64,000 bases of DNA from assembly GCA_038211425.1 (NCBI GenBank), contig JBBQVQ010000003.1:26563-90562 (forward strand). The letters are read 5' to 3'. The notes beneath the pieces are model-generated. The model did no database searches. It saw only the letters and a program-made list of their open reading frames with translations, and was not told where the DNA came from. Both the position numbers and the translations under genes were made by a program. The stretch is from Candidatus Limnocylindria bacterium. GTDB taxonomy: Bacteria > Chloroflexota > Limnocylindria > P2-11E. Positions 13,112 to 58,705 of this stretch are shown in pieces (the stretch's first letter is position 1; each line of letters starts with the position of its first letter).

Positions 13112-13185
13112 CGGGGTGTAGCGCAGCTTGGTAGCGCGCAGCGTTCGGGACGCTGAGGTCCCGGGTTCGAGTCCCGGCACCCCGA
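13112..13185 (+). tRNA. tRNA-Pro (anticodon CGG)
   Basis: 74-nt cloverleaf folded by hand: acceptor CGGGGTG/CACCCCG, D arm GCGC/GCGC, anticodon stem CAGCG/CGCTG, loop TTCGGGA (G37), T arm CCGGG-TTCGAGT-CCCGG, discriminator A. Confidence 0.9.
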
Positions 13186-13233
13186 CACGCGACCGGAGTC
13201 CGGCAGGCAGACGCACCTGTATCGTCTTGCTCG

Positions 13234-22286: not shown

Positions 22287-23699
22287 TCACACGGCGCCGT
22301 CGCGACGCAGCGCCGCGACGTCGCTCTCGCCGTAGCCGAGCTCCGCGAGGATCTCTTCGGTGTGCTCGCCCAGGAGTGGCGGGTGCCGGCGGACGGATGG
22401 CGGCGTGGCGTCCATGCGCACGGGGATCCCGGGCGCACGGACGCGACCGGCGGTCGGATGGTCGACCTCGGCGATCAGCCCGAGGTGGCGCACGACCGGG
22501 TCGGCGAAGACCTCGTCGAGCGCGTCGATCGGCCCGACGGGGACGTTCACCTCGCGAAGGCGCCGCACGACTTCGTTCTTGCGCAGCTTGCCGATGCGCC
22601 GTTCCAGCAGCGGCACGAGCGCGCTTCGGTGCAGGACGCGTTTGCCGTTGTCCGCGAAACGTGGGTCGTCGAGAAGGTCGTCGAGCTCCAGCGCGCGGCA
22701 GCATCGCTCGAAGAGCGCGTTATTCCCGCAGCAGACATTCACGAAGCCGTCGAGGGCCTTGAACGTCTGGTACGGGACGATCGAGGCGTGGCTGTTGCCC
22801 TCCGGACGCGGAACGGTGCCGTCGGCGAAGTAGCGCGCCGCTTGCCGCGACAGGAGCGCGACCTGCCCGCCGATCATCGTCGCGTCGATGTCCTGGCCAA
22901 CTCCGGTCCGTTCGCGCGCGTGGAGTGCCGCGAGTATCGCGAACGCCGCGAACATGCCGGCGACCATGTCGGCCTGCGGTACGCCGACCATCGACGGCGT
23001 GCCGTCGACCTCACCGGTGAGGCTCATGATCCCGCCCATTCCCTGCACGATGAGGTCGTACGCGGGCCACGCGCGCCCCGGACCGTCTTGTCCGAAGCCG
23101 GAGATCTGGCACAGGATGACCCGGCGGTTCAGCGTCCGAACCCGGTCGTTCGGAAAACCCAGCCGCGCGAGCGTGCCCGGGCTGAAGTTCTCGACGACTA
23201 CGTCGGCGCGCTCGATGAGCCGCTCGAGGATCGCCTTCCCGTCGGGATGCTTGAGATCGAGCGTCACACTGCGCTTGTTGCGGTTGATCGAGAGGTAGTA
23301 CGCGGACACGCCATTGATCCGTGGCGGGGCCCACTCGCGCGTCTCGTCGCCGCTGCCCGGCAGCTCGACCTTGATCACGTCGGCGCCGTGGTCGCCCAGC
23401 ATGAGCGTGCAGTACGGGCCCGCGAGCGCGCGCGTCAGATCCACGACGCGGATGCCGTCGAGGGCACCGCCCGCATCGCCGCCGCTGATGGCCGGCAACA
23501 CCTCGATCGTGTCGCCCTCCGACAGGACCGCGTCGGGCTCGACCTGGTCTCCGTTGAGGATGAACGCCGCCGTCTCGGCCATGGGGACCCCGAGCGACCC
23601 AAGCAGCGCCGCCGCGGTCTGGCCGGCGCCGTCAGCCTCGACGACCCTTCCCGCGGGGCTGAACTGGCGCAGCTCGCCGTGCAGGATCAGGCGGACCAT
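22287..23699 (-). CDS. MoaD/ThiS-like domain fused to family III CoA transferase (CaiB/BaiF)
   Basis: Internal ATG of track ORF 22287..24029, with a GGAG Shine-Dalgarno site. The first ~75 aa form a beta-grasp sulfur-carrier-like domain ending ...IEVLPAISGG. The same frame continues into a CoA-transferase III domain (GIRVVDLTRALAGPYCTLMLGDHGADVIKVE...). Confidence 0.7.
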   Translation of the reverse strand: MVRLILHGELRQFSPAGRVVEADGAGQTAAALLGSLGVPMAETAAFILNGDQVEPDAVLSEGDTIEVLPAISGGDAGGALDGIRVVDLTRALAGPYCTLMLGDHGADVIKVELPGSGDETREWAPPRINGVSAYYLSINRNKRSVTLDLKHPDGKAILERLIERADVVVENFSPGTLARLGFPNDRVRTLNRRVILCQISGFGQDGPGRAWPAYDLIVQGMGGIMSLTGEVDGTPSMVGVPQADMVAGMFAAFAILAALHARERTGVGQDIDATMIGGQVALLSRQAARYFADGTVPRPEGNSHASIVPYQTFKALDGFVNVCCGNNALFERCCRALELDDLLDDPRFADNGKRVLHRSALVPLLERRIGKLRKNEVVRRLREVNVPVGPIDALDEVFADPVVRHLGLIAEVDHPTAGRVRAPGIPVRMDATPPSVRRHPPLLGEHTEEILAELGYGESDVAALRRDGAV

Positions 23700-23754
23700 C
23701 GGCGCTCCATCAGGACGTCGCGTCCGCCCACCAGCGCAGAGTAACGTTGACGTC

Positions 23755-24414
23755 GTGGCCGAGGCGCTCCCGCTGTTCCCGCTCGGGCTCGTGCTATTCC
23801 CCGACATGCTCGTGCCGCTGCACATATTCGAGCCGAGGTACCGGCTCCTGGTGCGCCGCTGCATCGAAAAGGAGGAGCCCTTCGGCGTCGTGCTCGTGGG
23901 ATCCGCCGACGAGGCCGGGGCGCGCACCGGCCCGCGGCAGGTCGGCACGACAGCGCGGATCGTCGGTGCCCAGCCACTGCCCGACGGGCGCTCGTTCATC
24001 GTGGTCCGGGGCGAGCGGCGCTTCCTCATCGAAAGCCTCGTCGAGGACGAGGAGCCGTACCTCGTGGGCCGCGTGCGCTACCTGCCCGAGGACGCGGGCG
24101 CCGACGCACACGACGCGGCGGGCGCGACGGTCGACGCGTTCGTCGAGTACCTGCTCTCGGTCCTGACCATCACCGGCGAGACCCGTGGCGAGCCCCCGGA
24201 CGCGGACATCCGGTCGGGCACGCCGCGCGACATTGCCTACCGGATCGCGGGCGGGCTCGCGATCGACACCGGCGAGCAGCAGCGCCTCCTCGAGACTGAT
24301 TCCGTACGCGAGCGCCTGGTCACAGAGGCTCGGCTGCTCGAGCGCGAGAAGGAGCTCCTGCGGGACCTCGTCGTGCGCCGCCGCGCCCGCGGCGAGGGGC
24401 CCGTACTCAACTAG
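23755..24414 (+). CDS. Lon N-terminal (LON substrate-binding, PUA-like) domain protein
   Basis: The 3' third of track ORF 23314..24414. GTG ~23755. Motif LPLFPLGLVLFPDMLVPLHIFEPRYRLLVRRCIE. Divergent from the CoA-transferase gene. Confidence 0.7.
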   Translation: MAEALPLFPLGLVLFPDMLVPLHIFEPRYRLLVRRCIEKEEPFGVVLVGSADEAGARTGPRQVGTTARIVGAQPLPDGRSFIVVRGERRFLIESLVEDEEPYLVGRVRYLPEDAGADAHDAAGATVDAFVEYLLSVLTITGETRGEPPDADIRSGTPRDIAYRIAGGLAIDTGEQQRLLETDSVRERLVTEARLLEREKELLRDLVVRRRARGEGPVLN

Positions 24415-26718: not shown

Positions 26719-27564
26719 CTATTTCTCGATCGGCACTCCGATGAGGCTGCCCCATTCGGTCCAGGAGCCGTCGTAATTGCGGACCCTTTCCTGGCCGAGA
26801 AGGTACTTCAGGACGAACCACGTGTGCGCGGAGCGCTCGCCGATCCGGCAGTACGCGATCGTCTCACCGCGCCCGGTAAGGCCTTTCCCTTCGTAGATCG
26901 AGCTCAGCTCGTCGGCCGACTTGAAGCGCCCATCCTCGGCGACCGCGGTGGACCACGGTACGTTCTGCGCACCTGGGATGTGGCCGGCTCGCTGAGCGCC
27001 TTCCTGCGGGAGGTTCTCGGGAGCGAACAGCTCGCCCGAGTACTCCTTCGGCGAACGTACGTCGACGATCCGTTCGCCGTTGGTCTGCACGACCTTCTCG
27101 AGGACGTAATCGCGCAGCGCGCGGATCGATGCGTCGACTCCCTTGGCCCGGTACTCCGCGCGCGGGTACCGCTGCACCTCGGTCACCAGTGGTCGGTCTT
27201 CGGCGGCCCACTTCGCGCGGCCTCCGTTCACCAGGCGCAGGTCGGAGTGGTCGTAGTACTTCAGCAGCCAGAAGAACCATGCGGCGAACCAGTTGTTGTT
27301 GTCACCGTAGATCGCGATGGTCGTGTCGGCGGTGACGCCGTGGCGCGACAGGAGGTCCTCGAGCTCTTCCTTGGTGATGAGATCGCGCACCGGGTGCTGC
27401 TGGAGGTCCATGCGCCAGTTGAGGCCCACCGCGCCGGGCACGTGGCCCTGGTCGAACGCGGTGGTGTCCACGTCGACCTCGAAGGCGCGAACGTTCGGGT
27501 CCGCTTGGTGCTCGGCGAGCCAATCGGTCTCGACGAGCGCCTCAGGATGTGCGTAGGCGGTCAT
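26719..27564 (-). CDS. sseA: thiosulfate / 3-mercaptopyruvate sulfurtransferase (tandem rhodanese domains)
   Basis: Internal ATG ~27564 with a GAAAGGA Shine-Dalgarno site. Two rhodanese domains and the catalytic Cys loop CRIGERS. Confidence 0.85.
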   Translation of the reverse strand: MTAYAHPEALVETDWLAEHQADPNVRAFEVDVDTTAFDQGHVPGAVGLNWRMDLQQHPVRDLITKEELEDLLSRHGVTADTTIAIYGDNNNWFAAWFFWLLKYYDHSDLRLVNGGRAKWAAEDRPLVTEVQRYPRAEYRAKGVDASIRALRDYVLEKVVQTNGERIVDVRSPKEYSGELFAPENLPQEGAQRAGHIPGAQNVPWSTAVAEDGRFKSADELSSIYEGKGLTGRGETIAYCRIGERSAHTWFVLKYLLGQERVRNYDGSWTEWGSLIGVPIEK

Positions 27565-27822
27565 GTGCTGTCCTTTCTGGCGCCGCTGCTGCGGCGAGAG
27601 CTTCGTGCGTTCGTCGTGTCGGCCTCTGCGGCGCGCGGCTACGCGCCTGACCGGCTCCTCCGCCAGGAGCGTGCGGCGGTCACGCCCGAGGCGCGGCCGC
27701 CCAGGGACAGACGCAGATGAGGCCAAAGGTCGAGGACGCAGGAAGCGGACTCGCTCTCCCGTGATCTCCGAGTGGCTGGGTATTTCCGAGTCGCTGAGTC
27801 AAGAATCCGATTTTGCGCGCGA

Positions 27823-28533
27823 TCAGGCGGAAAGCCAAGACTCCACGATCGCGGGCAGCTCCGTCAGATCGACCACCGTGGCGTCGGGCTGGGGCTCGGG
27901 TGCCTGTTCGGCGGCGGCCGCCGTGCGCCGCCAGATCGCGCGTAACCCGAGTCGCTTCGCGCCGCCGACGTCGGCCTCGAGGTTGTCCCCGACCATGAAG
28001 GCCTCGCCGGGGCGGGCGCCGGCGAGCGCGAGGGCGCGTTCGAACATCGCCGGATGCGGCTTGCGCCAGCCGACGCTGTGCGAGCTGACGACGCCGTCGA
28101 GCGCGTCGGCGAGCCCGATGCGCGTCCAGTCACGAAGGACCTCCTCGTCGCCGCGGGAGAGGGTATTGGTCACGAGGATCACGCGCAGGCCACGCTCCTT
28201 GCACCAGCGGACGGCGTCGATCGCGCCTGGCACCGGTGCGCTCACGAGGTCGAGAGGTATCGAGAACACCATGCGTAGCCGGTCGAGGTCGATACCGTCG
28301 CGGTCGATCCCCCTGGACTCGAACCACCGGGCGAACCACCGGTTGGTCTCCTGAAGCAGGGGATCGGACGGATCCGGGGGCTCCAGATCGGCCACGATGA
28401 GCTCTTCACACCAAGCCTGCTCGCCGAACTCACGGGTGAGCGCCTCCCGGACGAGAGCCGCGATCTGCTCCGGCGGCAGCCAGCTCTCGACCAGGGTGTC
28501 GCCGACATCGAACAGAGCGGCCTTCAGAGTCAT
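27823..28533 (-). CDS. HAD-family hydrolase
   Basis: DxD motif at the N-terminus (LFDVGDTLV) and C-terminal motifs (MVGDNLEADVGGAKRLG). Confidence 0.8.
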   Translation of the reverse strand: MTLKAALFDVGDTLVESWLPPEQIAALVREALTREFGEQAWCEELIVADLEPPDPSDPLLQETNRWFARWFESRGIDRDGIDLDRLRMVFSIPLDLVSAPVPGAIDAVRWCKERGLRVILVTNTLSRGDEEVLRDWTRIGLADALDGVVSSHSVGWRKPHPAMFERALALAGARPGEAFMVGDNLEADVGGAKRLGLRAIWRRTAAAAEQAPEPQPDATVVDLTELPAIVESWLSA

Positions 28534-28629: not shown

Positions 28630-29079
28630 TTGGCCCTGGACTTTGAAGCGCTCGCGTTCATCGAGAAGTGGCGACAGCGCGCGTCGCGCGGCGCGGTCGT
28701 GGCGCTCGACGGGACCCGCGGCGAACTGCTCATCACCCTGCGCGTGGGCGAGCTCGGCGAGCGCACGGACCTGCGCGGGCGCGACGCGACCGGCGCCGCG
28801 CGCAAGCAGCGCCTTGCGATCGGCGACCGCATCACGATGGCCATCGAGTACGAGGCGCGGGACGTGGAGCCCGGAGCCGGCCACGGCGTGGCGGGTGGGC
28901 TGGTCGCGCCGGGCGCGGTCGTCGAGGGCACCGTGATCTCGCTCGGCGAAGTGGTCGTGGTCGATTGCGGAGCGCAGGTCCTCGTCGACGGAGCGACGAT
29001 GCCCGGCGCGTCGGTGGGCGACGACGTGCGCTTCGTCGTCGCGAGCGAGGGCAAGGCCTACCTGATCCCTACCCGTTAG
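28630..29079 (+). CDS. hypothetical protein (149 aa)
   Basis: Track ORF with a protein-like sequence. No recognisable domain. Confidence 0.45.
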   Translation: MALDFEALAFIEKWRQRASRGAVVALDGTRGELLITLRVGELGERTDLRGRDATGAARKQRLAIGDRITMAIEYEARDVEPGAGHGVAGGLVAPGAVVEGTVISLGEVVVVDCGAQVLVDGATMPGASVGDDVRFVVASEGKAYLIPTR

Positions 29080-29570: not shown

Positions 29571-30059
29571 CTAGTCGGCGGGTCCGCCCAGCCGTTCCAC
29601 CTGTTCGGCGATCTCGGTCTCGTCCGGGACCTCCCGCAGCTGATGCACGTCGATGTAGCGGCAGACGCCCTCGGCGTCGACGACGATGATCGCGCGCTCC
29701 GGACGTCCGATGTCCCCGTTGAAGACGCCATAGGACCTCGTCACGTCGCCGTGCGGCCAGAAGTCGGAGCAGAGCGGGTATTTCAAGCCGCCGAGCTGGT
29801 CGGCCCAGGCCTTCAGGGCGTAGACGGTGTCGCACGAGATGCCCACGACCTGGGCGGTGCCGCCGACAAAGCGCTCTTGCAGCGCATTCAGGGCCGGCGC
29901 CTCGCTACTTCAGGTCCCCGTGAAGGCGAACGAGAAGAACGCGATGACGACGCGCTTGCCACGGTGCTCCGACAGCCTGAAGTGGGCACCATCGTGGCTC
30001 CGCAACGCGAAATCCGGCGCGGTGTCGCCGACGCGGAGCGTCTCGGTCTCCGTCGCCAC
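29571..30059 (-). CDS. peroxiredoxin (Bcp/PrxQ-like AhpC-TSA family) with in-frame TGA at the peroxidatic-Cys position - candidate selenoprotein
   Basis: Track ORFs 29910..30107 (...LRVGDTAPDFALRSHDGAHFRLSEHRGKRVVIAFFSFAFTGT) and 29571..29846 are in the same frame, separated only by TGA at 29910-29912. The read-through is ...FAFTGT-U-SSEAP..., aligning with the FTxVC(T/P)TE motif. Start is uncertain (GTG at ~30059 or 30107). Confidence 0.7.
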
Positions 30060-30101
30060 CTTGCTGCGGCCTTTGCGGGGCACACGCGTACGATAGCCGC
30101 G

Positions 30102-30314
30102 ATGCACACTGAAGCCCGCGATCGGCGGATGGACGCGGATCGCCGCGACTTCCTCGCCTATCGCACGCGTTGTCCGTTCTCAGGCGATGCCATCGGGCCG
30201 CGCTTCGTGACCCGGGAGCATGCGGGCGTCCCTCCCGACCCGGCCTATGCGGCGAGCGTCCGTTGTCCGGGCTGCAAGCAGGAGTTCGAGGTGATCTTCA
30301 CCGGAGGCAGCTGA
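30102..30314 (+). CDS. hypothetical small CxxC...CxxC protein
   Basis: ATG-initiated tail of track ORF 29643..30314 (RCPFSGD...RCPGCKQEFEVIF). Overlaps the peroxiredoxin 5' end on the other strand, so it is uncertain. Confidence 0.3.
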   Translation: MHTEARDRRMDADRRDFLAYRTRCPFSGDAIGPRFVTREHAGVPPDPAYAASVRCPGCKQEFEVIFTGGS

Positions 30315-32569: not shown

Positions 32570-32873
32570 TGCAGCTCCTGCGTAGGATGCTTCTCCGCGC
32601 TTCACCTGCTTGATGCCACTTTAACTGCATGCCTTGTCCTGTCAAGGATGCTACCGCCGGCAATGCGACACGGGCGGAGCGGCAGGAGCGCCGGAAGGGC
32701 GAGTCGAACGGCGGCATCGCGCCGTGCGGCCGGATCGGAAGCCGTCGCGATGGGCATCGGTCGGATGACGAGGCGAGACCCGCGGGCCATCCCGCCAAGC
32801 GGCGGACCCCGCATCGGGTCCTGGCCCACGACGGGTCGTCCGGTCCGGCACCCGGCGGGCGTCTTGATTGCTG

Positions 32874-32948
32874 TCGGGGTGGACGGATTCGAACCGTCGA
32901 CTTCGACGCCCCCAGCGTCGCGGTCTAACCAAGCTGACCTACACCCCG
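32874..32948 (-). tRNA. tRNA-Pro (anticodon GGG)
   Basis: 75-nt cloverleaf on the minus strand: acceptor CGGGGTG/CACCCCG, D arm GGTC/GACC, anticodon stem CGACG/CGTCG, loop CTGGGGG, T arm GACGG-TTCGAAT-CCGTC, discriminator A. Confidence 0.9.
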
Positions 32949-33270: not shown

Positions 33271-33672
33271 TCAGCGCACGCGGCCGATCCGCGCGACCGG
33301 GGCGTATCGGAATGCCACGCGAGCGACCACCCTCGTCGCCGGTAGGGGGCCGAACGTCCGGCTGTCGGTGCTCAGCGTGAGGTTGTCGCCTGCGACCTCG
33401 CACGTCCCGTCCGGCCGCACCGCAGTCGCTCGCTTCACGAGTAGCCGGCGCGCGTCGCGAGGGTCCCGCACCACGACGAGATCACCGACGCGAAGCCGCC
33501 GGGGCGGCGGCAGGGCGATGAGCCAGTCGCCCTCGCGCAACGTCGGCTCCATGCTGCGTCCGGTGACCGCGACGCGAGTGATCAGCCGCGAGGGCTCGGC
33601 CCGAAGCGGCCTCCCCTTCCGGATAGCACGCCATCGGCCGTAAGCGAGGCGCGCGGCGCGAGCGGGATTCAA
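33271..33672 (-). CDS. sodX: S26-family signal-peptidase-like NiSOD maturation protease
   Basis: Ser protease motif (GRSMEPTL) and a C-terminal motif (GDNLTLSTDSRTFGP). Immediately downstream of sodN. Confidence 0.75.
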   Translation of the reverse strand: MNPARAARLAYGRWRAIRKGRPLRAEPSRLITRVAVTGRSMEPTLREGDWLIALPPPRRLRVGDLVVVRDPRDARRLLVKRATAVRPDGTCEVAGDNLTLSTDSRTFGPLPATRVVARVAFRYAPVARIGRVR

Positions 33673-33760
33673 GGGCCGCGAGGGCTCAGGCCGAAATGGC
33701 GTCCCGTTCCGGACGCCGCCGCGACCGACACGCGCAGCGCGAGTGGAGCCTGATCGGCTA

Positions 33761-34201
33761 CTAGGCCGCCTTCTTCGTCGCCCAGAAGATGTCGCTGATC
33801 TCTTTCACGGCGGCCTGGAGGTCGGCTGCGGCCTGCGCGTCCACGCTCTGCTTGTTCTTGGAGCAGAGCTTCGCCGCCTTCCAGAACGTCTCGTGAAGCT
33901 TGGGGAACTTCTCGAGGTGCTCGGGCTTGAAGTAGTCGGTCCAGAGGATGAGGAGCTCGCGCTTGCAGATCTGCGCGTGTTCCTCCTTGACGGCCACGGA
34001 ACGCACCAGGTTGTTGCGATGGGTCAGCTCATCCGGACCATGCTGTGCGGCGCCGGTGGCGGCAGCCTCGATCTTCTCGACCATCTTGGCGACGGTGTCC
34101 GAGGCGACCTTCGCGGCGGTCGGGTCGTAGATGCCGCATGGAATGTCGCAGTGCGCGTGGACGATGACACGTGGAGCGAGCAGCGAACGAATGGAGAACA
34201 T
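33761..34201 (-). CDS. sodN: nickel-containing superoxide dismutase precursor
   Basis: Internal ATG ~34201. Propeptide MFSIRSLLAPRVIVHA, then the Ni-hook HCDIPCGIYDP. Confidence 0.85.
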   Translation of the reverse strand: MFSIRSLLAPRVIVHAHCDIPCGIYDPTAAKVASDTVAKMVEKIEAAATGAAQHGPDELTHRNNLVRSVAVKEEHAQICKRELLILWTDYFKPEHLEKFPKLHETFWKAAKLCSKNKQSVDAQAAADLQAAVKEISDIFWATKKAA

Positions 34202-34244
34202 ACATCCCCTCCAGCGGAGTCGATTCGGTCGGGCGTCTCCGATA

Positions 34245-35310
34245 CTACGGCGGCGAGACCTGCCGCGCCGCGGCACCGATGACCAGGCGCGACACCTCCG
34301 CGAGGGGACCGGAGATCTCGTCGCCGCGCTCGCGGTCCATGAGCTCCCGCATGGCGTCTCGGACCGGCTTTCCCTCGAAGAGCACGGCATACGTCTGCTC
34401 CGCGATGGGCATCTCGACGCCCCGGTGGCGCGACGCAGCGCGGACGGCGGCGGTCGTGCCGATCCCTTCGGCGACCTGCCCGCCGAGATGGGCGCGGATG
34501 TCGGAGAGCGGCAGGCCCTTCGCCAGGAGCTCTCCCAGCGTGCGGTTGCGCGAATGCGCGCTCGTGCATGTCGCGACGAGGTCGCCGATCCCGGCGAGGC
34601 CCGCGGCGGTCAGGGGACTGGCCCCCTCCGCGAAAGCGAACCGGGCGATCTCGGCGAGACCGCGCGTCACGAACCCGGCCTTGGCGTTGTCGCCATAGCC
34701 CATGCCGTCGATGGCGCCGGCGCCGACCGCGACGATGTTCTTGAGCGCCCCGCATATCTCGACGCCGACGACGTCGGCGTTCGTGTACGCCCGGAACATC
34801 GGCGTACTCACGACCGCCTGGAACCGCCGCGCCGTGCCCGGATCGGCCGACGCGACCACCGTGGGCGCGGGGAGGCCGGTCGCGATCTCGCGGCTGATGT
34901 TCGGCCCCGAGAGGACGGCGATGCGATCGCGGTTCATCACCTCCGACCAGAGCCCGCTCATGCGGCGACCGTCCTCGGTGAGGCCCTTCGTCGCCGAACA
35001 AAGGTGGTGGTCCGGTCTGAGGAGCGGCGCGATCAGATCGCGAAGCTCGCGCACGCCAGCGCTCGGAACGGCGATCACCAGGTCGTCGGGGATCAGGGCG
35101 CGCTCGATGTCGCTCGTGACCTCGACGCCCTCCGGGAGGCGCACGCCCGGCAGATAGCGCACGTTCTCCCGCCGAGACGCGACCTCGCCGGCCCGCGCGG
35201 CATCGCGCATCCAGAGGACCACGCGCCGGCCGCCGTCCCGCGCCATGATCGTCGCCAGCGTCGTGCCCCACGCGCCGCCCTGGAGGACGGCAACGTCGGG
35301 CGCCCTCACG
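34245..35310 (-). CDS. gpsA: NAD(P)H-dependent glycerol-3-phosphate dehydrogenase
   Basis: GTG ~35310 overlaps the plsY stop. Signatures GGAWGTTLA and a C-terminal NAD_Gly3P_dh domain. The first 200 aa of the track ORF are a shadow. Confidence 0.85.
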
Positions 35311-56019: not shown

Positions 56020-57481
56020 TCAGGGTGCCACGCTCACCGCCGTACCCACGACCACGTTGATCTTCTGCTCGAGGAGCGGCAGCCGCGGCCACCACACCGG
56101 CCGCGCCTCCACGCTGACCACGCGGATGCGCCGTGGTTCGAGGAGAGGCGCGACCTCGCCGCGCTCTCGTCCGGCGACCGTCGCGGCGATCGTCGCCCGA
56201 TCGACGCGGGTGTGCTCCGTCGTTCGGGCCTTGACGTGCCACACAACGCCCGACTCGGTGATCGCGGGCGCGCCGAGCTCGACGACCGCGCCGTCCCTGT
56301 CGATCTCGTTCTCGGGCTTCGACGCGTCCTGCAGCCTCGCGAGGACCGCGGCGCGCGGCTCGTCCGCCGGTACAGCGAATGCGGTCGCGACGGCGCTCGC
56401 CGCGAGGTCGAACGTCGGCACCTCCTTTCCGACAACGTCGGCGGACGGCGTCTGCGCGCTGATGCGCACGATGACACCAGGCGCGACGGCAGTGCCGATC
56501 GGCGGCGCTCCGCGCCATGTCGTGAGCTGCTTCTCGCCTGCCTCCTGTAGCGCGGGCGGGATCCGCTTGGCGGCCAGGTCGTAGTCCTCCTGTTTCACGA
56601 CGGGGATCGTGGTGCTCTCTCCTCCGGCCGTGGGCGCCGGGTTCGACACGGCGTACGACGCGCTGGGGCTCACGAGGATGCGCCCGGCCGAGACGTTGCC
56701 CCCAGGGCCGGGGTCGACCGCCTCGACCGATACGTCCACGGTGCCGGCGAGGACGGCGAGGACGACGATGAAGCTGCGCGGCAACGTCTTGTCCTCGGTG
56801 GTCGCGAATCTGATGCCATCATTCGTGCGTAACGTCGTGCCCTTCGGTATCGCGATGTCCACCGTCGTCTGGTTGCTGAAGCGGACGCTTCCCGTCGCCT
56901 TCGTCGCGTCGACACGCGATCCGGTGGCGGCGCCCGTGACCGTCACGTTCACGGTCGCGACCAGGCTCTGCGCGGGAACTCCCGCGCCGGCGCCGGCGCG
57001 CACGTCGAATTCGAGCGGCCCGGTGACGAATGCGGTCGGAGCGATGGTCACCGTCGCCTCGGGCACGACAAGCCCCAGAACGAGCGCCGACACGGCCATT
57101 GCCGCCGCGAGAACGGCGACGCTCCGGCGGATCGCGCGCGCGCGACGCGCCGCCGCGGCGGGATCGTAGCGGCGCCTCTGTCCGAGCCGTTCCGTCGGGT
57201 CGAGCTCGCCGCGCTCGAGCGCCGCGATGGTCGAGTACGCCGGGACGCCAGCGCCCGAGGCCACCGCTCGCGCCCGCGCATCCGCGCTCACCAGCGCGAC
57301 CCTTCGGCCGCCGGCGCGCCTGCGCGCGACCTCGAGGAAGACAGCGTTACGCCCGAACGGAGCCCCGGGCGGGATGCTGAGGACGAGGTCGGCGTCGGGT
57401 GCGGCCGCGGCGATACGGTCGACGACGTCGAGCACCGTGGCGCTCGGATCGCACTCGATGATCGTGCGGGCGCTCAACCGG
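56020..57481 (-). CDS. hypothetical bitopic membrane protein (cytoplasmic N-domain, TM, large Ala/Thr/Val-rich extracytoplasmic region)
   Basis: Track ORF 56020..57849. A TTG ~57481 start is suggested because upstream residues are Arg/Ser-rich junk. TM helix SVAVLAAAMAVSALVLGLVV. Confidence 0.5.
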
Positions 57482-57622
57482 CATCCCCCGCGCGTGGACC
57501 GGCGAAAGGCCGACGCGCACACGGCGGCGTTCGTTCCCGCCGGTCCCACGGCGGCGCGCTCCGGGGTGGAACTGGGTGGGCGGCGGGCGGATCCGGCTCG
57601 CGACCGATCGCCGTGCGCGCGC

Positions 57623-58705
57623 TCACGCGTACACCCCAGCGGCGAGCGCGGCCGCGCCCGCTGCGACGAGGTCGTCCGCGTGCAGCGGAGCGTCGGTCGC
57701 GACGCGCGTCGCCAATGTCGGGCGGAGCGGCGCGATGTCGGCCGGGCCGCCGCGGATCGCGGCGATCTCATCGGCGAGCGCCCGCGGCAACATGAGCAGC
57801 GTCTCGGGGATGCCGACGAAGTACCAGCGCCCGGGGGGCGGACCCTCAAGAGCCGGATCCGGCGTGGTCACGCAGCTCGCCCACGCGCGCGCGTCCCGCT
57901 CGCGGGCCTCGTGCGGACGCGAGCGCAGCGCGTCGCGGCCGAGCGCGAAGACGCGCGTCGCGACGACACGCCCATCGCGCACGATCGCGTACGCGGTCAC
58001 GTCGGCGCCCAGCCGAAGGACGCCGCCCTCGACCAGGCCCGACTCCGCGAGGAGCCGTCCCAGCGCGTACGCGCCCGAGGTGACGGTGGCGTGGCGCTTC
58101 GCGCCCTCGGCGCTCGCCGCCGCGGCGGCCGACTGTACCAGCGGCGCGAGCGCGACGTCGGTGCGGATCTCGACCGTGCGCCCGCGATAACCGACCAGCG
58201 TCGGGAGGCGCCTTCCGTCGAGCAGCAGGCCCGCGACGTCATCCCGAAGCTGCACGAGCGCGATGCCGCGCAGCGATGGGTCGCCCTCCGCGGCCACGCG
58301 GGCCGCCGTCGCCGCCTCCTCCTTCGCCTCGCTCACCGCGCGCTCGAGTTCGCCCTCCGCGATGGCCGTTCGCTGGTCCGTTCGTTCCAAGACCGTCGCC
58401 CCGTGATGCGTCCGCACGTCGTCCCCGTCGATGGCGATGACGATCCGCTCCGCGTGGTCACCCTTCTCGGCGTTGCCGAGGGCGGAGGCGACCGCCGCGG
58501 CGGCGGCGCGGCGATCCGCGACCTGTCCGCTCGCGATCGCGCCCGGAGCCATGGGAGCGAGCGCCGAGGCGGAGACGCGCAGACGCCCGTCGTCGCGCTG
58601 CGCCACGACGACGCGGGCGCCGGAGGCCGCGAGCTCGATACCGGCGACCGTCCGGCGGCGCTCGCGGTCGCCCCGCCGGGGGTCCCGGTTAGGTCCCGCC
58701 ACCAC
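57623..58705 (-). CDS. hypothetical protein (possibly actin-like ATPase / PilM-FtsA-like fold)
   Basis: 360-aa track ORF. The N-terminus (TVAGIELAASGARVVVAQRDDG...) faintly resembles actin-like PilM/FtsA proteins. Low-confidence fold guess. Confidence 0.4.
   Translation of the reverse strand: MVAGPNRDPRRGDRERRRTVAGIELAASGARVVVAQRDDGRLRVSASALAPMAPGAIASGQVADRRAAAAAVASALGNAEKGDHAERIVIAIDGDDVRTHHGATVLERTDQRTAIAEGELERAVSEAKEEAATAARVAAEGDPSLRGIALVQLRDDVAGLLLDGRRLPTLVGYRGRTVEIRTDVALAPLVQSAAAAASAEGAKRHATVTSGAYALGRLLAESGLVEGGVLRLGADVTAYAIVRDGRVVATRVFALGRDALRSRPHEARERDARAWASCVTTPDPALEGPPPGRWYFVGIPETLLMLPRALADEIAAIRGGPADIAPLRPTLATRVATDAPLHADDLVAAGAAALAAGVYA

Follow-up and report, generated by a model that had tools for sequence, protein, structure and literature searches.

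A probable selenocysteine peroxiredoxin of the AhpE subfamily, with a conserved in-frame UGA and a downstream hairpin, in a Limnocylindria-like Chloroflexota bacterium

We describe here a gene on the minus strand of a 64-kb stretch of bacterial DNA (contig JBBQVQ010000003.1; the whole of this stretch is called "the window" below) that is interrupted by an in-frame TGA and that very probably works as a single functional gene for a selenocysteine (Sec) peroxiredoxin of the AhpE subfamily, in a Limnocylindria-like member of the Chloroflexota. Except for the TGA (UGA in the mRNA) the gene is intact, this codon stands at the catalytic column of the protein, and both the codon and an RNA hairpin that follows it are conserved together across many relatives. 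At the level of the gene, the observation is far beyond chance. The coordinates of the gene, of its critical codons and of the other features that we mention are collected in Table 1.

A preliminary description of this DNA, made from its letters and a list of open reading frames (ORFs), had pointed out that two minus-strand ORFs (29910..30107 and 29571..29846) lie in one frame, separated only by the TGA at 29910-29912, and this is indeed the case: that codon is the sole stop between them. The mRNA at the site reads ...VVIAFFSFAFTGT-UGA-SSEAPALNALQERFVGG... or, with the peptide given up to the codon, ...FSFAFTGT-UGA-SSEAPALNALQERF... When Cys was put in place of the stop, the read-through product matched the Pfam profile AhpC-TSA (PF00578) over profile positions 1-123 of 124, with an E-value of 1.6e-31 and a score of 109.2 bits against a Pfam gathering score of 26. 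Translation probably starts at the GTG at 30083-30081, where V-P-R-K-G-R aligns with the starts of homologues (M/V-A-A/P-P-K-G-R); the alternative, which the preliminary description had adopted, is an upstream in-frame GTG at 30107, and with residues numbered from there, relatives start to match at residues 6-12. When the whole of the window was scanned for TGA codons within continuous coding-like sequence (defined by a high GC content at third codon positions on both sides), three places emerged: the putative Sec site, the only one that does not lie between adjacent genes, and two ordinary gene junctions. As TGA is the stop codon of 32 of the 45 genes predicted in the window, the genetic code used here is not one where TGA is generally sense.

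The top entries in a protein search (70-79% identity) are fragments of about 100 residues that begin just past the TGA site, several of them from metagenome-assembled genomes (MAGs) of Chloroflexi and named "redoxin domain-containing protein"; full-length relatives appear at 52-57% identity and have Cys at the TGA column. The DNA around six of these fragments gave ten Chloroflexota MAG or assembly loci (L001-L010), all syntenic with the window, and in all ten an ORF of 48-58 residues and the fragment lie in one frame, parted by a TGA at exactly the same codon. The orthologue is carried by the MAGs GCA_005889075.1, GCA_005881735.1, GCA_005883625.1, GCA_028876375.1, GCA_018971975.1 and GCA_966191445.1, and by the Limnocylindria MAG that includes contig DASYUY010000044.1. 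At the level of species (one genome per species, 80 loci returned), the TGA is found at this codon in 27 of the 80 representatives. The closest of them (L011, 76% identity) is a Candidatus Limnocylindria MAG of the Chloroflexota; the others include cultured species (Leptolinea sp. HRD-7, AP024710.1; Ornatilinea apprima P3M-1; Sulfobacillus harzensis DSM 109850), a large number of Anaerolineae, and MAGs of Chloroflexia, Dehalococcoidia, Acidobacteriota, Ignavibacteriales, Bacilli and Vulcanimicrobiaceae. TGC or TGT stands at this codon in the 53 representatives that are left, most of which are Streptomyces. A scan of metagenomes, mostly from soil, returned 80 loci at 71-77% identity, and the TGA is kept in every one of them. 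The preliminary description had spoken of high-GC actinobacteria, a placing of the host that we cannot follow: with a Candidatus Limnocylindria MAG as the nearest relative, sequence comparison makes the host most likely a member of the Chloroflexota, class Candidatus Limnocylindria.

No further stop is present in the 56 distinct sequences of the Limnocylindria clade. In these sequences, nucleotide diversity at codon positions 1, 2 and 3 amounts to 0.13, 0.10 and 0.41 in the 45 codons upstream of the TGA, and to 0.11, 0.09 and 0.34 in the 100 codons downstream. Variation is dominated by third positions on both flanks, and both are therefore translated in the frame that spans the TGA, under purifying selection.

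The Limnocylindria Sec clade stands apart on a long branch in a tree made by neighbour joining (without support values), and Sec and Cys forms are interspersed elsewhere, L030 and L089 being Cys forms. One Chloroflexota MAG (L031, JAAZNC010000039.1) has a TGT (Cys) form of the gene that is nested among the TGA forms of Anaerolineae; this position, in a tree that carries no support values, suggests a reversal from Sec to Cys.

Which peroxiredoxin is this? The closest solved structure by sequence is AhpE of M. tuberculosis (Rv2238c; 1XVW, 1XXU and related entries), which matches residues 20-163 with an E-value of 4e-27; the AhpE entries range from 4e-27 to 9e-26, and all other matches, which are to other types of peroxiredoxin, are at 7e-16 or weaker. 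The TGA lies opposite the single cysteine of AhpE, in A-F-T-G-I-C-Q-G-E, which is known as its peroxidatic Cys45, and the column is an invariant Cys in the Cys-form homologues. The claim that the TGA falls where the peroxidatic cysteine belongs is thus borne out by the alignment. The Arg of the block G-R-P-E-R-A-I aligns with that of A-N-R-G-T in M. tuberculosis AhpE and, from established knowledge of peroxiredoxins, is presumably the catalytic Arg. Considering the motif PxxxTxxC/U together with this Arg, the window protein has the Thr (-3), the C/U column and the Arg, and Ser replaces the Pro at -7.

The label Bcp/PrxQ, under which the protein had first been described, cannot be retained, for the NCBIfam model of Bcp (PRK09437) scores 49.4 bits against a cut-off of 140, and that of PrxQ 29.6 against 260. 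We also tried and rejected membership of PrxU (NCBIfam equivalog NF040737; 62.1 bits against a cut-off of 270), and the Tpx and AhpC models scored far under their cut-offs. Since the Bcp, PrxQ, Tpx, AhpC and PrxU scores are all far below their cut-offs, the protein is, as judged by these models and by the sequence match to a solved structure, an AhpE-type peroxiredoxin, neither Bcp/PrxQ nor PrxU.

This kind of selenoprotein is already known. Prx with the motif TxxU is an experimentally verified family of bacterial selenoproteins (PMC13188914), and Prx is the fifth most populous bacterial selenoprotein family, with 12 members and 5 inferred Cys-to-Sec events (Zhang et al. 2006, PMC1794560). The window gene is therefore an addition to an established family. 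The view that selenoperoxiredoxins are rare is not supported by this ranking (PMC1794560), nor by the presence of the TGA in a third or so (27/80) of the species representatives of the subfamily.

With PrxU of Eubacterium acidaminophilum and the Prx (TxxU) family, the window protein shares the AhpC/TSA fold (PF00578), a (predicted) Sec in place of the peroxidatic Cys in T-x-x-U, and an in-frame hairpin past the UGA. PrxU differs in being of the typical 2-Cys type, with 233 positions, and in coming from a strict anaerobe, whereas the window protein is AhpE-like, has about 170 residues, and belongs to a soil lineage of Chloroflexota that is apparently of an aerobic type (a nickel superoxide dismutase, Ni-SOD, is encoded nearby). 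With M. tuberculosis AhpE it has in common the blocks AFTGxC/U, PLxSDFWPHG and YGVFN and the conserved Arg; AhpE, however, has Cys instead of Sec and no other cysteine, whereas the window protein would combine Sec with cysteines at +26 and +47 (counted from Sec) and a third, variable one. Moreover, FFPLAFTGIC of AhpE corresponds to FFSFAFTGTU in the window, with Ser for the motif Pro, and the window protein has an extra N-terminal extension of about 17 residues. Finally, the TGA orthologues of Anaerolineae, Chloroflexia, Sulfobacillus, Acidobacteriota and others (L012-L065) are members of the same subfamily at 38-56% identity, with the same TGA codon and a hairpin whose centre is equally distant from it, but their motif is P-L-A-W-T-P-V/I-U (with the Pro kept), they are without Cys +26 and +47, and their stem differs in both register and sequence.

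The hairpin itself was correctly drawn in the preliminary description. Counting the U of the UGA as +1, a lower stem pairs CGCCGGC (+14..+20; 29893-29899) with GUCGGCG (+46..+52; 29861-29867), and the upper stem GCGCU/AGCGC (+28..+32 with +38..+42; 29881-29885 with 29871-29875) gains two further A-U pairs across a single U.U mismatch. At the apex is the loop GCAAG (29876-29880, or +33..+37), 29 nucleotides (nt) past the UGA, and the hairpin begins 10 nt past this codon. The computed energy is -26.8 kcal/mol for a stretch of 66 nt and -20.8 kcal/mol for the hairpin alone. The constraints published for a bacterial selenocysteine insertion sequence (bSECIS; PMC13188914) are a loop of 3-9 nt with a G in loop positions 1-2, an upper stem of 4-16 bp, a distance of 16-37 nt from the UGA and a minimum free energy (MFE) of -7.5 kcal/mol or lower; with its GCAAG loop, 5-bp upper stem, 29-nt spacing and -26.8 kcal/mol, the fold after the UGA lies within all of them.

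The significance of this hairpin comes only from the comparison with relatives. In the MFE fold of nt +4..+60, at least 10 bp nested round nt 31-36 are present in all 64 distinct clade sequences and in 25 of the 26 other Sec forms (that is, in 89 of 90 distinct TGA-form sequences, with the hairpin centred about 33 nt past the UGA) versus 13 of the 53 Cys forms; the mean energy is -27.4 kcal/mol in Sec forms versus -19.3 kcal/mol in Cys forms (GC 0.71 versus 0.68), and the mean z is -2.14 for 35 Sec-form loci versus -0.53 for Cys forms, all of these being contrasts that ignore phylogenetic relatedness, with most of the Cys forms coming from Streptomyces.

Base pairing was also followed within the Sec forms, using as controls the same stems with their 3' partners shifted ("slid" controls). 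For the 26 Sec forms from other clades, pairing in a two-part stem (12-18/47-53 and 27-30/36-39) reaches 78.6%, versus 25-45% in the slid controls, double changes occur at 10 of its 14 pairs, and none of 500 shuffles reaches any of the observed measures. In the clade (64 distinct sequences, mean column identity 89%), the structure of the window is 84.4% paired versus 38-54% when slid, and there are 28 double-change cells, a figure reached by 0 of 500 shuffles; the compensatory changes include G-C to C-G swaps between the synonymous third positions of Pro and Ala codons. Compensatory change gives a strong signal in the other Sec clades; in the Limnocylindria clade, where divergence is low, the signal is moderate. 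Built from the other clades alone, a covariance model located the post-UGA site in 6 of 7 clade loci (E 2e-5 to 0.02), and a sequence-only model from the same alignment gave no match. RNAalifold, run on alignments in codon register, gave nothing for the Sec forms of the other clades (26) and an unconvincing structure for nine clade members, because the stems shift register between sequences; for this reason the structures were named explicitly and their pairs counted. No SECIS or tRNA-Sec family of Rfam was matched (in the whole window at gathering scores, and in the surroundings of the site at permissive E-values), which says little as regards SECIS, because bacterial SECIS elements have no general model. 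A SECIS-like placement of the hairpin had been proposed at the outset, and we find a conserved hairpin at the position expected of a bacterial SECIS.

Apart from the neglect of relatedness in the contrasts between Sec and Cys forms, several observations weigh against a Sec peroxiredoxin. All the bSECIS constraints are also passed by 12 of the 53 Cys-form controls, and the loop-G rule of the same model is passed by only 18 of 64 clade sequences, so that this test has low specificity, discriminates poorly in GC-rich sequence and is given little weight here. Taken alone, the window hairpin (in a context of 70% GC) is not exceptional, with z of -0.12 (68 nt) and -1.44 (57 nt) relative to dinucleotide shuffles, and of -0.76 relative to synonymous recodings of this peptide that follow the codon usage of the window; of these recodings, 23% fold at least as well. 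The covariance model gives the window site 13.4 bits and an E-value of 0.01 with filters off, which is weak, yet it is the top match in 6 kb. In place of the near-universal motif Pro at -7 (29931-29933, minus strand) the window has Ser, and 55 of 56 distinct clade sequences have Ala; the Pro is kept in at least one metagenome relative (L168) and in the Sec forms of other clades.

Finally, a search of the window and of most of the flanks fetched gave no selA, selB, selD or gene for tRNA-Sec. ARAGORN detected no tRNA-Sec in the window and 34 flanking loci, Pfam showed no SelA, SelB or SelD among 28 of the 45 predicted window genes and one small extra ORF, and E. coli SelD and SelB as tblastn queries had no match in any locus. 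At the level of the phylum, the use of Sec is documented: Chloroflexi are listed with selenoproteins by Zhang et al. 2006 (PMC1794560), and Dehalococcoidia are among the most selenoprotein-rich bacteria in BSepDB (PMC13326102). Mukai et al. reported an unusual 8/4 tRNA-Sec in Chloroflexi (PMC5389517), which standard tRNA finders may miss.

Among the alternatives, the one that survives best is that the UGA is recoded to cysteine or another standard amino acid, not to Sec, either through a tRNA-Cys that resembles tRNA-Sec and has a UCA anticodon, together with a SelB paralogue (selC*/selB*), or through near-cognate read-through aided by the hairpin. A conserved UGA followed by a hairpin cannot tell which amino acid enters, Sec machinery was not seen in the window and most of the flanks, and a selC* tRNA-Cys(UCA) can decode UGA as Cys in some anaerobic bacteria (PMC5389517). 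However, selC* has been reported in Firmicutes, Thermodesulfobacteria, Nitrospirae and Proteobacteria, not in Chloroflexi, and always alongside a complete Sec apparatus (PMC5389517), and we therefore keep this hypothesis at a low probability. Furthermore, a Cys at this position would need only a change from TGA to TGC or TGT, such as related lineages have made, and yet the UGA has been retained by all 80 environmental relatives.

It could also be argued that the TGA is a true stop, and that the gene is split into an N-terminal peptide of 57-65 residues and a separately initiated C-terminal one. This is how public annotation of the MAGs presents it (58 aa, plus a "redoxin domain-containing protein" of about 102 aa), and in several relatives an ATG occurs a few codons past the TGA. 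Such a split would, however, remove the catalytic residue altogether, and the relatives do not share a first start codon past the TGA (that of the window is a GTG, 22 codons further on), and for these reasons we consider it very unlikely. In addition, the codons between the TGA and those downstream starts are conserved as protein, the Cys-form homologues are single polypeptides, and one Pfam domain crosses the junction. Lastly, an error of sequencing or assembly, or a nonsense mutation confined to one strain in a decaying pseudogene (either of which, according to the preliminary description, would undo the case), might look just like this in a single sequence, with one in-frame stop in an otherwise intact gene, but its probability is negligible and the comparative data exclude it, since the same TGA is shared by independent assemblies from many samples and lineages, without extra stops or frameshifts and with third-position-dominated variation on both sides.

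If the gene encodes a Sec peroxiredoxin, as we think, the UGA at 29910-29912 would be decoded as Sec during translation, with Sec-tRNA(Sec) delivered by a SelB that the mRNA hairpin recruits. Where helix alpha-2 begins, the selenolate would stand in for the peroxidatic cysteine, with the conserved Thr (-3) and Arg activating it; on reducing peroxide it would be converted to a selenenic acid, and would then be recycled by a thiol, either that of an external redoxin or low-molecular-weight thiol (as in 1-Cys AhpE) or possibly that of one of the two clade-specific cysteines. We infer Sec insertion, SelB dependence, substrate and reductant from the established Sec pathway of bacteria and the chemistry of peroxiredoxins.

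The two cysteines in question, Cys +26 (in I-S-C-D; 29832-29834, minus strand) and Cys +47 (in P-L-C-S-D-F-W; 29769-29771, minus strand), are present in 56 and 53, respectively, of the 56 distinct clade sequences; the other Sec clades and most Cys forms lack them. An AhpE-like protein of the Cys form (P0069) has both Ser at -7 and the I-S-C-D block, and these two features are therefore not tied to Sec. From their conservation, Cys +26 and +47 could be resolving residues, or they could be irrelevant. A bolder proposal is that the Sec-AhpE of this clade is a distinct variant, in which the motif Pro has been lost, the two cysteines act as built-in resolving residues (through a selenenylsulfide relay) and the conserved, divergently transcribed small Cys-containing protein (30129-30314) serves as a dedicated partner. 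We think this proposal unlikely; if it were true, the Limnocylindria variant would be a Sec/Cys "atypical 2-Cys" subclass of peroxiredoxins, undescribed so far.

Table 1. The putative selenoprotein gene, its critical sites and other features of the 64-kb window.
Feature	Position	Strand	Basis or remark
AhpE-type peroxiredoxin gene (probable selenoprotein)	29571..30083	-	about 170 residues including Sec; translation, Pfam match across the TGA
In-frame UGA, read as selenocysteine (T-G-T-U, TxxU motif)	29910..29912	-	opposite the peroxidatic Cys (C45) of M. tuberculosis AhpE; column always Cys in the Cys-form homologues
Active-site Thr codon, three residues before Sec (TxxU)	29919..29921	-	F-T-G-T-U; column T or S in all aligned homologues
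Conserved active-site Arg codon (G-R-P-E-R-A-I)	29694..29696	-	invariant column R138 in the homologue alignment
Candidate SECIS-like hairpin inside the coding sequence, mRNA nt +13..+54	29859..29900	-	fold and comparison with relatives
Stop codon TAG of the peroxiredoxin gene	29573-29571	-	
Small ORF, 61 residues (MDADRRDFLAYRTRCPFSGD...VRCPGCKQEFEVIFTGGS)	30129-30314	+	divergent from the peroxiredoxin gene; no Pfam match
149-residue ORF (LDFEQLAFIEKWRQRA...EGKAYLIPTR)	28630-29079	+	just downstream, on the opposite strand; highly conserved in syntenic MAG loci; no Pfam match
HAD-family hydrolase and two-domain rhodanese	26719-28533	-	beyond the peroxiredoxin neighbourhood
Nickel superoxide dismutase (PF09055, E 1e-46), then S26/S24-type peptidase	33271-34390	-	about 3.5 kb from the peroxiredoxin gene
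tRNA-Pro (CGG)	13112-13186	+	
tRNA-Pro (GGG)	32873-32948	-	upstream of the CAP-domain gene, as in L010 and L011
609-residue protein with Baseplate_J-like domain (PF04865, E 5e-12)	56020-57849	-	among YceG, chorismate synthase and alaS
Family III CoA-transferase (E 2e-128) with N-terminal ThiS/ubiquitin-like domain (E 2e-9)	22287-24029	-	

The order of genes in the ten syntenic loci is that of the window: a CAP-domain protein, a small ORF on the opposite strand, the split peroxiredoxin gene and an ORF of 148 residues on the opposite strand. Beyond these, most of the loci have a HAD hydrolase, and several a rhodanese. The position of the tRNA-Pro (GGG), common to the window, L010 and L011, supports the synteny with Limnocylindria-type MAGs. 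The small, divergently transcribed ORF is conserved at this place in each of the six distinct MAG lineages, with 67-78 residues; a VGPRFVTREH block and the motifs C-P-F / C-P-x-C are common to the lineages, and two lineages are without most of the cysteines. Its product could be a partner or a regulator of the peroxiredoxin. The Ni-SOD, the S26/S24-type peptidase (presumably its maturation protease) and the Sec-peroxiredoxin lie near one another, forming a local oxidative-stress gene group, and the nearness of the first two fits a role of the peroxiredoxin in oxidative stress. As for the rest of the window, the start of the ORF for the family III CoA-transferase may be over-extended, and the housekeeping genes include alaS, aroC and those for the exonuclease VII large subunit, YceG, an ECF-type sigma factor and ABC transporters.

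Public records do not show this protein as we read it. In all ten assembly loci (L001-L010) the gene has been called as two pieces, of 48-58 aa and 99-105 aa; the C-terminal fragments (P0003, P0015, P0017, P0047 and P0050) are the "redoxin domain-containing protein" of NCBI, and JGI names some of the relatives "alkyl hydroperoxide reductase subunit AhpC". These two-piece calls are a systematic mis-annotation of a selenoprotein, and with the gene called as two fragments the catalytic selenoprotein is invisible in those records.

In the literature we found no paper that names both Limnocylindria and selenocysteine, and nothing specific on a Sec-containing AhpE. The gene described here adds an AhpE-type case to the recurrent exchange of Cys and Sec in peroxiredoxins. 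It leaves the general understanding of selenoproteins unchanged, and its value lies in the correction of annotations and in pointing to Sec in Limnocylindria. For the organisms themselves, it implies that selenocysteine is used in this widespread class of soil and freshwater Chloroflexota, and that the supply of selenium may affect their defence against peroxides.

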